Source: Bacilli bacterium (GTDB taxonomy: Bacteria > Bacillota_I > Bacilli_A > RF39 > UBA660). From it: a stretch of 63,232 nt of DNA. The stretch spans positions 1-63,232 of the forward strand of contig JAFWEE010000002.1 of assembly GCA_017515795.1 (NCBI GenBank), in the 5' to 3' direction. A program made the translations under genes and the position numbers. Shown here in pieces: positions 23,357-63,232 of the stretch. The notes beneath the pieces are model-generated. The model was not told the DNA's origin, searched no databases, and was given only the letters and a program-made list of their open reading frames with translations. How positions within the stretch are numbered: position 1 is the first letter of the stretch; each line of letters begins with the position of its first letter.

Positions 23357-23432
23357 GTTTGTAATGACTTCCTTCGTTACAACCGCACGAATATGGTTTT
23401 AAAGCTTTGCTACCATCTATAGGCGAGTCTTA
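23357..23432 (+). ncRNA. L21 ribosomal protein leader RNA
   Basis: Hairpin TGTAATGA/TCGTTACA, then ACCGC ... ATGGT/ACCAT ... GGCGAGTC, typical of the Firmicute L21 leader; directly upstream of rplU. Confidence 0.8.
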
Positions 23433-23457
23433 AGGAAATAAAAAAAGGAGGTATAAA

Positions 23458-57729: not shown

Positions 57730-59832
57730 ATGAAACAAAAAGTTCAAAATAAAATACATGTTAATAAATTTGTTATTTTATTTGGACTTTTTTTATTTGC
57801 AATAATAATAGCTAGATTAGTATATTTAAATTTATCTCCTAAAATAGATGGTATTAATCTATCTAAATTTGCCAAGAATAGAAATACTGTTAAAAGAACT
57901 TTAAATGCAAATAGAGGTACTATATATGATTCTAATGAAGAAGTCTTAGCAGAAACAGTAGATTCATATACAGTAGTAGCATTCTTAGATAAATCAAGAA
58001 GTAAAAATAGCACTAAACCAAAACATGTAGTAGATGTAGAAGAAACTGCCAAAGCATTATCTCCACTTATTAATATGAGTGAAGAAAGACTTATTGAACT
58101 TATGAGTCAAAAAGGATTATATCAAGTAGAATTAGGCCCTGGAGGTAAAGGATTAACTGAACTTCAAAAAGAAGAAATAGAAAAACTAGAATTACCTGGT
58201 ATAGGATTTATTCCTACGCAAAAGAGATATTATCCTAATCTAGATTTTGCATCATATGTAATAGGTTATGTAAGAGAATATGATGATGGTAAAACAGTTG
58301 GAGAAATGGGTATAGAAGCTAAATTCAATAGTGAACTTACTGGTGTTAATGGATCTGTTACATATCAGCAAGATGCTAATGGATATAAACTTATTAATTC
58401 TCCAGAAATTAGAATAGAAAAAGAAGATGGATATGATATATATTTAACAATAGATTCTAATGTACAATTAATGACAGAAAGAGCATTAAATGATGCATTT
58501 AGTAGATCAGGTGCATCTAAAGCTATATTTATAGTAGCAGAAGCTAAAACAGGTAAGATTATTGCTTCTGCAACTAAACCTAGTTTTGATCCAAATGTAA
58601 AGAATATTACTAACTATCTAGATCCATTAGTATCTTATTCATATGAACCTGGATCTACTATGAAAACATTTACATATATGGCTACTATTGAAAAAGGTAA
58701 CTATAATGGACAAGATACTTATCATTCCGGTACTATGAAAATAGATGAGTATACTATTAAAGACTGGAATACTTATGGATGGGGAGATATTTCATATGAC
58801 TATGGATATGCTCAAAGTTCTAACTTAGGAGTAGCTAATTTAACTCAAAAGTATTTAACTGGTCAGGAATTAAAAGATTATTTAAAGAAACTAGGATTTG
58901 GTTCTAAAACAGGTATAGAACTTCCAGGTGAAGTTTCTGGTAAAGTAGATTTTACATATAAAATAGAGGTTGCTACAGCATCTTTTGGACAAGGAATAAC
59001 TATTACACCAGTTCAAATGATTAAAGCTTTAACAGCTATCTCAAATGATGGTTATGTTTTAAATCCAACAATAGTAGAAAAAATAGTATCTCCTGATACT
59101 GGAGAAATAATATATCAAAATAAACCTCAAAAGGGTACTAAAGTTGCATCACAAGAGACAGTTAATAAGATTAAATCTTTAATGAATGATGTAGTTACTA
59201 TAGGAACAGGTACTAGTTATAATATGGATGGCTATGATATTATAGGTAAAACTGGTACAGCAGAGGTATATAACGCAAATACTGGTAGATATTATAAAAC
59301 TACATATAGAAATATAAGATCTTTTGCGGGTATGTATCCTAAAGATAATCCTAAATATGTAATGTATATAGCATTTGAAAATGCTGCATCATCTTCTCAA
59401 ATGGCAGATGCTGTTAAATCATTAATTCAAGATATAGAAGCTTATTATAATCTAACTAATGTTAGGGCTACTACTAACTATGCATATAAAGTAGGTAATT
59501 ATTCTAATAAGAAAGTAGTAGATGTAAAAACAGAATTAGATAATAATGGTATATCATATGAGTTAATAGGAGATGGAGATATTATAATAGATCAATATCC
59601 TACTAAAGATAATTATGTAGATGGTAAGATTTTATTAAAGACTAATGGTAATATAGGAGACACTGATTTAAGAGGATTCTCTTCTAAGTCTTTAAGAAAT
59701 TATTGTAGACTTATAAATGCAGAATGTAATTTAAATGGTTCTGGTTATGTAACAGATCATAATTTTGAAAAAGATGGAACTGGTAAAATAATAAAAGTTA
59801 ATGCAGAATTATATTTACCAAGTGCAGAATAA
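57730..59832 (+). CDS. Class B penicillin-binding protein (PBP2x/PBP2B-like) with PASTA domain(s)
   Basis: RGTIYD, RYYP, EPGSTMK, SSN, KTGTA. Confidence 0.93.
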   Translation: MKQKVQNKIHVNKFVILFGLFLFAIIIARLVYLNLSPKIDGINLSKFAKNRNTVKRTLNANRGTIYDSNEEVLAETVDSYTVVAFLDKSRSKNSTKPKHVVDVEETAKALSPLINMSEERLIELMSQKGLYQVELGPGGKGLTELQKEEIEKLELPGIGFIPTQKRYYPNLDFASYVIGYVREYDDGKTVGEMGIEAKFNSELTGVNGSVTYQQDANGYKLINSPEIRIEKEDGYDIYLTIDSNVQLMTERALNDAFSRSGASKAIFIVAEAKTGKIIASATKPSFDPNVKNITNYLDPLVSYSYEPGSTMKTFTYMATIEKGNYNGQDTYHSGTMKIDEYTIKDWNTYGWGDISYDYGYAQSSNLGVANLTQKYLTGQELKDYLKKLGFGSKTGIELPGEVSGKVDFTYKIEVATASFGQGITITPVQMIKALTAISNDGYVLNPTIVEKIVSPDTGEIIYQNKPQKGTKVASQETVNKIKSLMNDVVTIGTGTSYNMDGYDIIGKTGTAEVYNANTGRYYKTTYRNIRSFAGMYPKDNPKYVMYIAFENAASSSQMADAVKSLIQDIEAYYNLTNVRATTNYAYKVGNYSNKKVVDVKTELDNNGISYELIGDGDIIIDQYPTKDNYVDGKILLKTNGNIGDTDLRGFSSKSLRNYCRLINAECNLNGSGYVTDHNFEKDGTGKIIKVNAELYLPSAE

Positions 59833-59833
59833 T

Positions 59834-59868
59834 AAAAAAACAGATGATTAAATCATCTGTTTTATTTT
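59834..59868. terminator. Bidirectional intrinsic terminator
   Basis: A7-CAGATGAT-taa-ATCATCTG-TTTTATTTT. Confidence 0.8.
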
Positions 59869-59972
59869 ACAATTCGAAGGCGCCCCCCTGAAGTTGCGCC
59901 TTCTTAAAAAAGAATAAAAAGGGGTTGGCTAGTGTGATACTAGCAGCCAATTCGCCATTCGGGAATTGGTAT
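59835..59972 (-). ncRNA. Candidate structured small RNA of unknown family
   Basis: GC-rich island with three hairpins, bounded by a - strand TTGACA(60006-60001)-17-TAATAT(59983-59978) promoter and a terminator with T7 on the - strand. Confidence 0.55.
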
Positions 59973-60062
59973 CAATTATATTAATGATTTTAGGTACTTT
60001 TGTCAACCTAAAATGTAAAAAAAGTTTAAAAAATATGATATAATTTATTTAGGTGATAACAT

Positions 60063-62012
60063 ATGTTTGGTTTAGATAATATAAAAGGTATTGGACCTTC
60101 TACAATTAATAAATTAAATAAGTTAGATATATATAATATGGAGGACTTAATTAATTACTTTCCGTATAAATATCATATATTAAAAAAGACTTCATTAAAT
60201 GAAGAAAAAGTAGTAGTATCAGGTAAAATATTATCTATTCCTACAGTCTCTTTTTTTAAGAAGATGAATAGATTATCTTTTACTATGGAAATAGATAATC
60301 GAATATTTAATGTAACTATTTTTAATAGATTATTCTTAAAAGATAAATTAACTATTAATAAAGTAGTAACAGTAGTAGGTAAACTAGAAAAAAATACTAT
60401 TACTGCATCAGATATATATTTATATGATATAGGAGGTAATATAAATATTATTCCTGTATATCATTTAGTAAAGGGATTAACATCTAAAAATATAACTAAA
60501 TATATAAACGAAGCAATAAATACATCATATATTTATGATTATATTCCTGAAATATTATCTAATAAATATAACTTTATATCTAAAAAGGATGCTATATATA
60601 AAGTAAATAATCCATTATCTATGGAAGACATAGATATATCAAGAGATAGACTTAAATATGAAGAACTATTTATTTATTCTTTAAAGATGAATTATTTAAA
60701 ATCTAAAAAAGATAATAAAGGGACATCTATTATAGTAAATAAAACTAGAATAAATGAGTTTATTTTATCTTTGAGTTATTCATTAACAAAAGACCAATTA
60801 CATGCTTTAGAAGATATCTTTAAAGACATGGAATCTCCTTCACGTATGAACAGACTAGTAGAAGGCGATGTAGGTTCTGGTAAAACTATAGTAGCCCTTA
60901 TAACTATGTATGCATATTTTTTAAATGGATATCAATCTTCTTTAATGGCTCCAACTGAAATATTAGCTATTCAGCATTATAATAATATGATTAATTTATT
61001 TAAAGACTTTAATGTAAATGTAGCATTAATTACATCATCTACTAAAAAAAGTGAAAAGAATAAGATATATGAAGGAATTAGTAATGGATCTATTAATATG
61101 GTAATAGGTACTCATTCTCTTTTAAATGAAGATTTAGAGTTCAATAATTTAGGATTAGTAGTAACAGACGAACAACATAGATTTGGAGTAAATCAAAGAA
61201 GGAATTTAAGAAATAAAGGTAATAATGTAGATGTGTTATATCTTTCTGCGACACCAATACCTAGAACGTATGCTTTAACTCTTTTCGGTGATATGGATAT
61301 ATCTATTATTGAAAGTAAGATATCTGGTAGAAAAGAAATAACTACTAAAGTATTTAAAAATAATCAAACTGATGAATATTTAAATATGATATATAAAGAA
61401 TTAAAGGAAGGTCATCAAGTATATATAGTATCTCCTTTAATAGAATCAGAAGATGAATCTTTAGATATAAAGAAATTAAGAGATAAATTTTCTTTAGCAT
61501 TTAAAAACTACAATATAGATATTCTTCATGGTAAGATGAAATCTAAAGAAAAAGATGAAATAATGAATAAATATAAAAACCATGAAATAGATATATTAAT
61601 ATCTACTACTGTAATAGAAGTAGGAGTAGACGTTAAGAATGCTACTATGATTGTTATATTTGATGCTGAAAGATTTGGTTTAGCTACACTTCACCAACTT
61701 AGAGGTAGAGTAGGAAGAAATGATTTAGAGTCTTATTGTTTACTTATATCTAATAAAGAAACAGAAAGACTAAAAATAATGGAATCTATCCATGATGGGT
61801 TTAAACTTTCAGAAGAAGACTTTAGACTTCGTGGATCAGGAGATTTATTTGGTACGAGACAACATGGAGATATGAACTTTAAAGTGGCAAAACTACCTAG
61901 AGATATTGATGTATTAAAACATACAAGTGAAGATTCAAAAGAAATATTAAAAAATATTGATAATTATTCTTTACTTCAAGGTATAATTAAAGATATAAGA
62001 AAAAAAGATTAG
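60063..62012 (+). CDS. recG: ATP-dependent DNA helicase RecG
   Basis: MNRLVEGDVGSGKT, DEQHRFGV, SATPIPRT, HQLRGRVGR, RGSGDLFG.RQHG. Confidence 0.97.
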   Translation: MFGLDNIKGIGPSTINKLNKLDIYNMEDLINYFPYKYHILKKTSLNEEKVVVSGKILSIPTVSFFKKMNRLSFTMEIDNRIFNVTIFNRLFLKDKLTINKVVTVVGKLEKNTITASDIYLYDIGGNINIIPVYHLVKGLTSKNITKYINEAINTSYIYDYIPEILSNKYNFISKKDAIYKVNNPLSMEDIDISRDRLKYEELFIYSLKMNYLKSKKDNKGTSIIVNKTRINEFILSLSYSLTKDQLHALEDIFKDMESPSRMNRLVEGDVGSGKTIVALITMYAYFLNGYQSSLMAPTEILAIQHYNNMINLFKDFNVNVALITSSTKKSEKNKIYEGISNGSINMVIGTHSLLNEDLEFNNLGLVVTDEQHRFGVNQRRNLRNKGNNVDVLYLSATPIPRTYALTLFGDMDISIIESKISGRKEITTKVFKNNQTDEYLNMIYKELKEGHQVYIVSPLIESEDESLDIKKLRDKFSLAFKNYNIDILHGKMKSKEKDEIMNKYKNHEIDILISTTVIEVGVDVKNATMIVIFDAERFGLATLHQLRGRVGRNDLESYCLLISNKETERLKIMESIHDGFKLSEEDFRLRGSGDLFGTRQHGDMNFKVAKLPRDIDVLKHTSEDSKEILKNIDNYSLLQGIIKDIRKKD

Positions 62013-62020
62013 GAGGAATA

Positions 62021-63124
62021 ATGAAAGAACAGTTTTTATTTGATAAATTATCTAAGATGTCTCTTCAAACTAAAATTGGTCAAATGTTACTAATTGATTA
62101 TAGGAATGAAGATGGCTTTAAAATGACAGTAGATTTAGAAAAAGTATTAACTACTTATTCTCCAGGTGGTTTTATACTTTTTAGAAGCAATTTAAGTGAT
62201 TATAAAAATACTCAAAAACTATTGCATAGTATTAAAGAAATAGGAGATATTAGTCCCTTTATAGCAGCTGATCATGAAGGTGGAATAGTTCAAAAACTAT
62301 CAGATGTTGGTTTAACTATAATTCCATCTATGGAAGAAGTTGCTAAAACTATGTCAGAAGAAGATGTATTTAATCTTGGTAAAAAAATGGGTGAAGAATT
62401 AAAATCAATAGGAGTAGATATGGATATGGCTCCAGTACTAGATGTTTTATCTAATCCTAATAATGTTGGTATACAATCAAGATCATTTGGTAGTGATCCA
62501 GAGGTAGTAAAAAGACTATCTATGGCAATTGCAAATGGATTAAAAGAAGAAAAAGTAATCTCAGTTGGAAAACACTTTCCAGGTCATGGAGGAGTTATAA
62601 CTAATTCTCATGAAGATTTACCTGTTATAGATAAAAATTTAGAGGAATTAAAAGCATTAGAATTAATTCCATTTATAGAAGCTATTAAACAAAATGTACC
62701 GGGTATAATGGTAGGTCATTTGGCTGTTCCAAAAGTTACAGGAGATAAAACTCCTGCTAGTTTATCAAAAGTATTAGTAAATGATATTTTAAGAGATGAT
62801 CTTGGATATAATGGTTTATCATTACCAGATGCTCTAAAAAGAATGGGTGCATTAACTAAATATTTTGATGAAAGAGAAATTTATTTAAGATGTATTAATG
62901 CAGGTAATGATATGTTATTAATGCCTCAAAATATTAATATTGCATATGATACTATATACAGAGCAGTTAATGAAGGAACTATTACTGAAGAAAGAATAAA
63001 TGAAGCTGTTTATAGAATTCTTTCTACTAAATTTGATTATGGATTTTTTGATAAAGAGTATAATGAATATGTATTAAATAATCAAAATCAACAATATGTA
63101 AATACTCAATATAAACATAGATAA
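62021..63124 (+). CDS. nagZ: GH3 beta-N-acetylhexosaminidase (NagZ-like), no signal peptide
   Basis: KIGQM, DHEGG, APVLDV, RSFG, KHFPGHG..SH..LP, AGNDMLL. Confidence 0.85.
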   Translation: MKEQFLFDKLSKMSLQTKIGQMLLIDYRNEDGFKMTVDLEKVLTTYSPGGFILFRSNLSDYKNTQKLLHSIKEIGDISPFIAADHEGGIVQKLSDVGLTIIPSMEEVAKTMSEEDVFNLGKKMGEELKSIGVDMDMAPVLDVLSNPNNVGIQSRSFGSDPEVVKRLSMAIANGLKEEKVISVGKHFPGHGGVITNSHEDLPVIDKNLEELKALELIPFIEAIKQNVPGIMVGHLAVPKVTGDKTPASLSKVLVNDILRDDLGYNGLSLPDALKRMGALTKYFDEREIYLRCINAGNDMLLMPQNINIAYDTIYRAVNEGTITEERINEAVYRILSTKFDYGFFDKEYNEYVLNNQNQQYVNTQYKHR

Positions 63125-63129
63125 ACAAA

Positions 63130-63158
63130 TTGACAAAAGACATAAAATGTTTTACTAT
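63130..63158 (+). promoter_or_regulatory. Strong sigma-A promoter
   Basis: TTGACA-17-TACTAT. Confidence 0.75.
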
Positions 63159-63164
63159 AAATAT

Positions 63165-63232
63165 AGCATAACAAGATATTTGTTATGTGCACTTATACTG
63201 GATTTTGTATAAGTGAACCAAACCCCCTGAAG
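63165..63232 (+). ncRNA. Structured RNA or leader, truncated by the window end
   Basis: Hairpins CATAACAA/TTGTTATG and CACTTATAC/GTATAAGTG immediately after the promoter, then AACCAAACCCCCTGAAG. Confidence 0.4.

Follow-up and report, generated by a model that had tools for sequence, protein, structure and literature searches.

Two candidate small RNA families flanking recG in uncultured gut Bacilli and a conserved complementarity between them

The window analyzed here, a stretch of 63,232 nucleotides (nt), is the entire contig C16 (JAFWEE010000002.1) of the draft genome of an RF39 Bacilli bacterium (17 contigs, 683,874 bases, 24–27% G+C). Near its right end it holds RNA1, on the minus strand, and RNA2, on the plus strand, one on each side of the recG helicase gene. 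Judged from sequence and predicted transcription, RNA1 and RNA2 are separate, predicted trans-acting small RNA (sRNA) genes, read in divergent directions, that are core to an order of uncultured, low-GC gut Bacilli with genomes of ~1 Mb. A G-rich loop of RNA1 is complementary to a C-rich unpaired strand of RNA2, the putative RNA2 seed. We propose that the two bind each other in an sRNA–sRNA crosstalk such as that of RsaI with RsaG/RsaE or of RosA with RoxS, a reading to which we assign a probability of about 45%.

An earlier note on this DNA had pointed to a 10-mer, CCCCCTGAAG, that occurs in the 12-nt loop of a third hairpin and again at the end of the window, downstream of a promoter. Both sites were found as described. 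Hairpin 3 has arms GAAGGCGC (59876–59883) and GCGCCTTC (59896–59903) around a 12-nt loop (59884–59895) that reads CCCCCTGAAGTT on the plus strand and AACUUCAGGGGG on the minus strand. The second copy of CCCCCTGAAG forms the final ten bases of the window (63223–63232), and a TTGACA-17-TACTAT promoter lies upstream of it (63130–63158). The recurrence had been called unlikely to arise by chance, and the counts agree: there were two matches in the window compared with 0.01 expected, none of 100 shuffles reached two or more, and CCCCCTGAAG, and even the 7-mer CCCCCTG, occurred in only these two places in the whole draft. The two copies are direct repeats on one DNA strand. The opposite sense of the two transcripts also held, as the RNA1 promoter lies on the minus strand, a U-run follows hairpin 3 in relatives, and RNA2 is read from the plus strand. 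Further, both RNAs have the common layout attributed to them, in which CCAA(A)CCCC(C)U comes after two 5' hairpins. A promoter scan alone was not significant in this AT-rich window (22 sites versus 28.4 in shuffles); we accepted the promoters of RNA1 and RNA2 because they are conserved in relatives.

RNA1 (59834–59971, minus strand) is a predicted transcript of ~137 nt in this genome. Its promoter (59978–60006, minus strand) consists of TTGACA (60006–60001), a 17-nt spacer and TAATAT (59983–59978), and an equally spaced TTGACA-type -35 element is present in relatives. The covariance model R1 covers positions 59970–59869 and scored 108.5 bits (E 6e-20) on the RNA1 of the window. Hairpin 1 (59947–59969, minus strand; CCAAUUC-loop-GAAUUGG) has an invariant stem and a variable loop. 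Hairpin 2 (59928–59944, minus strand; GCUAGUAUCACACUAGC) is invariant within the family, and in the genome of the second family (G025) both sides of its closing pair are changed and the pair is kept (GCUAGU/ACUAGC to ACUAGU/ACUAGU). The CU-rich strand CAACCCCUUUUUAUUCUUUUUUAA that follows (59904–59927, minus strand) resembles an anti-Shine-Dalgarno sequence and is presumably an mRNA-binding seed; it was invariant in alignment A2 and unpaired in the minimum free energy (MFE) and consensus folds. Hairpin 3 (59876–59903, minus strand) is a predicted intrinsic terminator in most relatives, in which the U-run stands directly 3' of it. Its stem co-varies, with changes on both sides of five pairs, and the sequence of its loop is fixed. 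This G-rich loop (59884–59895, minus strand) includes UCAGGGGG, the core complementary to the RNA2 seed. A second, bidirectional terminator (59863–59837, minus strand) comes after hairpin 3 here and in three close relatives; it is common to RNA1 and the convergent penicillin-binding-protein gene.

RNA2 (63165–63232, plus strand; predicted start) is cut by the contig end, and the window holds its 5' part only. In relatives, a GC-rich terminator hairpin and a U-run complete it to ~90–97 nt overall. Its promoter (63130–63158, plus strand) is conserved in relatives. The fold places hairpins 1 and 2 at 63166–63188 and 63190–63215 (plus strand), and the unpaired C-rich seed AACCAAACCCCCUGAAG occupies 63216–63232 (plus strand). 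The strand has the form AACCAAA(A)CCCCCUGAAG and is unstructured between hairpin 2 and the terminator. All 25 relatives folded, which represent different species, gave the same architecture, and the C-run was unpaired in every MFE structure. RNA2 was searched for by sequence pattern, because the family-wide MAFFT alignment (A3) did not resolve the hairpins well enough for a model.

Both RNAs are widespread. The 40 relatives searched by BLASTN include 13 of the same genus; the RNA1 region was detected in 11 of these and the RNA2 region in 9 (E ≤2.3e-5), and the RNA1 core was detected in other genera as well. When up to three mismatches were allowed, the 33-nt core of RNA1 was present in 223 of 251 genomes of the family and in 192 of 214 genera, with no mismatch in nearly all of the matches listed, and a reversed control of this core had no matches among the family genomes. 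The RNA1 covariance model detected RNA1 in 116 of 121 genomes of the order, including the one genome sampled from the second family. A strict pattern for the RNA2 seed matched 178 of the 251 family genomes, and its reversed control matched none. Scanning one genome per species for exact matches suggested ~1,200 stretches with the RNA1 motif; their sources are metagenome-assembled genomes from gut and rumen named as uncultured Bacilli, Tenericutes or Mollicutes, 'Mycoplasma sp. CAG:611' and 'Candidatus Fimihabitans intestinipullorum', names that belong to the RF39-type gut Bacilli. RNA1 and RNA2 are neighbors family-wide, and in dozens of genera they lie 2.1–4.7 kb apart on opposite strands around recG. 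At one locus (G161:C3:1002150-1002850; L297) they stand back to back, with ~110 nt between the promoters and no recG between them.

Additional copies of parts of RNA1 were seen in a few genomes. A second copy of its invariant 40 nt lies in another setting in G017 (C1:75187-75268; L034:288-369); it lacks hairpin 1 and the G-rich terminator, and no Rfam family matched it at E up to 1. Tandem duplicates of RNA1, ~150 nt apart, occur in two genomes of one genus (G239:C10:15035-15283 and G317:C1:83557-83809). A perfect 24-nt copy of the unpaired strand of RNA1, with the rest of RNA1 absent, lies near a contig start in G020 (C5:319-342; L035) and could be a remnant, a misassembly or a chance match.

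Neither RNA matched a family in Rfam 15, and 30 loci from relatives gave no gathering-level match. Permissive scans yielded nothing but matches far below threshold; for RNA2 the best was the LhrC model (RF00616) on the complete RNA2 of a relative (G002; 22.3 bits, E 0.21, gathering 110). The RsaE/RoxS model (RF01820, gathering 79 bits) exceeded its cut-off in none of five near-complete relatives and gave two weak matches (25–26 bits) away from RNA1 and RNA2. Further, neither RsaE nor RsaI (RsaOG) was among the families that Rfam matched to 59700–60100 at E up to 10. A search of the literature on small RNAs of RF39 found nothing relevant. As far as sequence can tell, RNA1 and RNA2 would be two new sRNA families that work like known C-rich/G-rich sRNA pairs.

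Two other identities were rejected. RNA1 is not a diverged 6S or signal recognition particle (SRP) RNA: both of these RNAs lie elsewhere in all five genomes searched, 6S scoring above the cut-off in only three of the five. A ribosomal RNA (rRNA) operon leader was considered for RNA2 because the contig ends there and another contig of the draft, C4, appears from its first 70 bases to start inside a 5S rRNA gene. However, the RNA2 of relatives ends in a terminator of its own, with protein genes next in line, and two single-contig genomes have their 16S gene at a great distance from RNA2. None of the contig ends read looked like 16S or 23S rRNA, no scan of the draft for these having been made.

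The complementarity that is conserved between the two RNAs is an 8-nt core, CCCCCUGA in RNA2 versus UCAGGGGG in RNA1. We compared 61 pairs of RNA1 and RNA2, each from one genome; G184 and G024a (RNA2 cut by a contig end), G044 (RNA1 outside the piece) and the genome of the window (RNA2 cut) were left out. A loop of the form [U/C]CAGGGG(G) was present in 54 of the 61 pairs and in 16 of 17 readable genomes of a second set. The core was kept in 53 of the 54 pairs with a G-rich loop, in which contiguous Watson-Crick pairing extended over 7 bp (1 pair), 8 bp (27), 9 bp (7), 10 bp (13), 11 bp (4) or 12 bp (2); the 10 bp in the genome of the window are at the upper end of this range. The earlier note had predicted TT as the next bases beyond the contig end. 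Nine relatives of the same genus show AGGAGC, AGGACC, AGGAGA, AAGGCC or TGGCTA after CCCCCTGA, never AGTT, so the match is at most 10 nt long in this genus. Complementarity is also present in the second family (G025), where RNA2 reads ...CCCCCUGAAA and the loop UUUCAGGGG; these form 9 bp, and 2.3 kb separate the genes. When 20 genomes that had failed the strict pattern were scanned again for a C-run with a terminator, RNA2 was found in six, of which five read CCCCCUGA and one reads CCCCCUGG. In the draft of the window, the RNA1 loop is the best complement of the RNA2 seed (10 nt), and all other sites match 8 nt or fewer. The predicted core duplex has a free energy of -16.2 kcal/mol, and opening would cost 3.7–5.5 kcal/mol for the RNA1 loop and 0.0–0.2 kcal/mol for the RNA2 seed. 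Scores of full-length duplexes were not used, as they ignore structure within each RNA.

Several observations weigh against the proposed pairing. Seven of the 61 pairs (G133, G244, G195, G189, G077, G265 and G174) have unrelated RNA1 loops yet keep the RNA2 seed, and G015 and G209 likewise lack the G-rich loop and keep the seed. Such losses imply that the loop is dispensable and that the RNA2 seed is conserved for another reason. Compensatory covariation across relatives, which the earlier note had proposed as a check, was not found beyond the 8-nt core, and the core is uninformative in this respect because it is invariant. The extension of pairing beyond the core averaged 1.96 bp within genomes and 1.92 bp across genomes; 6,437 of 20,000 permutations reached the observed value (p ~0.32). 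At the first flanking position of the 54 pairs there were 27 A.C mismatches, 24 A-U pairs, 2 G-C pairs and 1 U.U, and single cases in which the flank fits (such as A-U in G041, G-C in G014 and G276) were no commoner than chance. The invariance of the RNA2 core is also partly circular, because both the RNA1 core and CCCCCTGA were required in the search for the pairs, and related genomes are non-independent samples. Further, U.G and C-G pairs form at the top of the loop in MFE folds, leaving a loop of 3 or 4 nt, and the G-run may be partly masked.

Given these points, the claim in the earlier note of an sRNA/target or sponge pair was sustained in part. Conserved sRNA genes, opposite sense, predicted accessibility and genetic linkage speak for it; the lack of covariation beyond the core and the loss of the loop in seven of 61 pairs do not. 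Nothing pointed to the two-piece RNA that had been suggested as an alternative. In the crosstalk we propose, RNA2 would be a simple regulator with a C-rich seed, composed of two hairpins, an unstructured strand and a terminator. RNA1 would have two working parts. Its invariant CU-rich strand, CAACCCCUUUUUAUUCUUU, would probably cover ribosome-binding sites of the AAAGGGG type, several of which lie just upstream of open reading frames (ORFs) in the draft. Its G-rich loop UCAGGGGG on the terminator hairpin would pair with the seed of the neighboring RNA2 over 8–11 bp (10 bp in this genome), and one of the two RNAs would then titrate or destabilize the other.

The likeness to RosA-RoxS and RsaI drawn in the earlier note agrees with the descriptions in the papers on these systems. 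In RsaI, a G-track binds C-rich sRNAs including RsaG, and a CU-rich strand binds mRNAs (10.1101/278127). RosA's G-rich stretches sponge RoxS and FsrA via their C-rich target-binding regions, the G-C pairs being decisive (PMC8216469). RNA1 appears to have the same two parts as RsaI (RsaOG) of Staphylococcus aureus, whose partners are RsaG, RsaD and RsaE: an unpaired CU-rich strand between helices and a G-run in a hairpin, with RNA2 in the place of the C-rich partner. RNA1 differs from RsaI in that there is no sequence or Rfam relationship, its G-run is in the terminator loop whereas that of RsaI is in a 5' hairpin, and the genes of RNA1 and RNA2 are linked around recG. RosA of Bacillus subtilis is similarly a stand-alone sRNA in which single-stranded G-rich regions pair with C-rich regions of the partner. 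However, RosA is ~229 nt long with three G-rich regions, and it is not known from its description to carry a seed of its own (PMC8216469), whereas RNA1 spans ~100 nt, with one G-rich loop and a CU-rich seed of its own.

RNA2 for its part resembles LhrC (RF00616) and RsaE/RoxS (RF01820) in the order of a hairpin, an unpaired CCAAAC-CCC-U strand and a terminator. As in RsaE/RoxS, C-runs are exposed in unpaired strands, one in each RNA (CCCC in RNA1 and CCCCC in RNA2). LhrC and RsaE have several C-runs, unlike RNA2, which has a single one.

No mRNA target with a long duplex emerged. In five near-complete genomes, matches with up to three mismatches were approximately as frequent as in the reversed control, and none was found in the draft of the window. 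A conserved target was not found among the UUCAGGGGG ribosome-binding sites of relatives, which precede four unrelated genes (encoding a DUF2441 protein, a radical-SAM enzyme, a VWA protein and one protein without a Pfam family). In the draft, 120 sites match one or another 8-mer of the complement of the RNA1 CU-rich strand, 20 of them just upstream of an ORF start. The 3' end of 16S rRNA, ...GGATCACCTCCTTT, resembles the CU-rich strand of RNA1. Pairing of RNA1 with 16S rRNA was rejected, the best duplex (-22.9 kcal/mol) being weaker than the mean of 200 shuffles (-25.5 kcal/mol).

An alternative that we weigh seriously, while considering it unlikely, is that RNA1 and RNA2 are two independent regulators without functional pairing, each acting through its C-rich strand on the ribosome-binding sites of mRNAs. 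The G-rich loop could then serve RNA1 itself, by masking its own CCCCU seed over 5 bp, by mimicking a Shine-Dalgarno sequence or by binding a protein, and the match would follow from the tuning of both RNAs to G-rich ribosome-binding sites and C-rich seeds. The lack of covariation beyond the core and the loss of the loop in at least nine genomes with RNA2 unchanged are as this explanation predicts. In addition, AGGGG of RNA1 can, from its sequence, pair with the CCCCU of the same RNA; UUCAGGGGG, with ATG 4–9 nt further on, is an ordinary ribosome-binding site in the four unrelated genes of relatives; and the 20 sites of 120 that lie just upstream of ORF starts fit a strand acting on mRNAs. However, the loop matches RNA2 over 8–11 nt and the seed of RNA1 over only 5 nt, and mimicry or self-masking could do without the conserved UCA before the G-run, which pairing with RNA2 (UGA) requires. 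The two genes also stay linked, and outside the RNA1 loop the draft has no site that matches more than 8 nt of the RNA2 seed. We consider it improbable that RNA1 goes beyond an ordinary base-pairing sRNA and acts on the translation machinery itself, by mimicking or competing for the contact between ribosome and mRNA, or as the RNA of a conserved ribonucleoprotein, with RNA2 as a dedicated antagonist nearby. The 33-nt core of RNA1 is identical in most of ~190 genera, a conservation at the level of rRNA, and RNA1 combines a strand that resembles an anti-Shine-Dalgarno sequence with a loop that resembles a Shine-Dalgarno sequence. This explanation fits because of that level of conservation and because no long target was found in the five near-complete genomes. 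A single long target, pairing with 16S rRNA, 6S RNA and SRP RNA leave the conservation of the core unexplained, since the searches for them came out negative.

The remaining explanations do without a pairing function. It seems very improbable that two short motifs, each conserved on its own account, share the 10-mer by chance. The match was picked after the sequence had been seen, only 8 nt of it are conserved, and the extra 2 nt in this genus are not kept elsewhere, all of which chance would allow; yet 0.01 matches are expected per window and the genome has just the two copies of the motif, the loop is conserved in more than 50 genera although terminator loops normally drift, and the complement persists in the second family. 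Least probable in our view is an explanation at the level of DNA, in which CCCCCTGAAG is the attachment core of a tyrosine recombinase and the copy in the RNA1 terminator a secondary or relic site. It draws on the integrases just downstream of RNA2 in three of ten genomes, two of them with Mob_Pre, on the inserted genes in G044, G069 and G055, and on flanking repeats that start exactly at the first C of CCCCCTGAA. The many family contigs that end within ~70 nt of the motif and the arrangement of the two copies in the window as same-strand direct repeats also agree with it. But none of the loci inspected has an insertion beside the RNA1 terminator, and the two copies enclose recG, which belongs to the core genes and not to cargo. 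Around the RNA1 copy, the arms co-vary like an RNA stem and are not fixed like recombinase-binding sites, and in most genera this copy reads ...TGAG, unlike the RNA2 core.

Further copies of CCCCCTGAA with the terminator lie 2–18 kb downstream of RNA2 in relatives, and the first C of CCCCCTGAA is exactly where the flanking repeats set in, with 0 nt identical leftward and 9–14 nt rightward (41 nt in G068, by reading of the printed sequences). Among ten genomes in which the region downstream of RNA2 was examined, three have PF00589 tyrosine integrases, together with a Mob_Pre relaxase in G068 and G067 and with a Fic protein in G041. Three others carry inserted genes up to the further copy of the motif: an AbiEi/AbiEii pair (G069), a methylase with a TdeIII-type restriction enzyme (G044), and an ORF of 149 aa with a weak match to major facilitator superfamily transporters (G055). 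The other four have ordinary genes there. Because of the repeats that start at CCCCCTGAA and of the integrases and cargo downstream, the 3' end of RNA2 from CCCCC onward is, on this comparison of loci, an attachment site of the type known from transfer RNA (tRNA) genes. The hot spot was seen in relatives at loci L078, L079, L091, L092, L093, L095 and L289–L296.

Integrative elements are known to insert into the 3' end of tRNA and transfer-messenger RNA (tmRNA) genes, bringing a replacement 3' end and leaving direct repeats. Here too, a conserved RNA gene is entered at its 3' end, which is replaced, and direct repeats are left; the difference is that the target is a putative regulatory sRNA gene, whose attachment core overlaps the seed. 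Integration at sRNA genes has a precedent; a search of the literature on sRNA genes as integration sites found only tRNA and tmRNA sites. Many contigs of the family stop within ~70 nt of the motif, and C16 most likely stops exactly at the motif owing to this integration site, since a stop at the last base common to the occupied and empty forms is the outcome expected of an assembler. The run of the match to the very end of the sequence, which the earlier note had pointed out, is therefore best explained by an assembly break at the attachment core of mobile elements. The same note had named a dispersed repeat or an insertion-sequence end as what would speak against its reading; the motif is not a dispersed repeat in the genome, yet it is a chromosomal target of mobile elements. 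No overlap with the end of C16 was found among the other contigs of the draft, nor were alternative contigs with other forms of the junction.

A conserved non-coding block, GTTTATAAGGGATTTTTAACYATTT...TCTAGATACCAYACTAGATA, stands directly after the RNA2 terminator in four relatives (L087:60-170 in G076, L088:2030-2130 in G055, and in G059 and G019). It precedes a small ORF and a histidine-phosphatase operon and may be an operator or a further RNA.

If the pairing of RNA1 and RNA2 is real, G-rich/C-rich sRNA crosstalk of the kind described in Bacillus and Staphylococcus would extend to a very different, genome-reduced branch of Bacilli, and its use by unrelated RNAs would argue for a general solution. 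These gut Bacilli are known only from metagenomes, for which the RNA1 core provides a marker of the group with conservation of rRNA grade. The 3' end of RNA2 is a predictable landing site for mobile elements and defense islands, one that breaks metagenome assemblies at a known point.

The order of genes on the plus strand is a penicillin-binding-protein gene (57730–59832, plus strand), RNA1 (minus strand), recG (60063–62012, plus strand), a glycosyl hydrolase family 3 gene (62021–63124, plus strand) and RNA2 (plus strand). RecG, identified by the Pfam domains RecG_wedge, DEAD, Helicase_C and RecG_dom3_C, is encoded in the conserved spacer that separates RNA1 from RNA2. The glycosyl hydrolase family 3 gene, between recG and RNA2, is a lineage-specific insertion that does not belong to the RNA pair, because the contigs of relatives join 61909/61940 to 63122/63129 and skip the gene, and the spacing between RNA1 and RNA2 in G006 is only ~2.1 kb. 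Elsewhere in the window, the ribosomal protein L21 leader (RF00559, 50.6 bits) at 23371–23440 was the sole Rfam family at gathering level.

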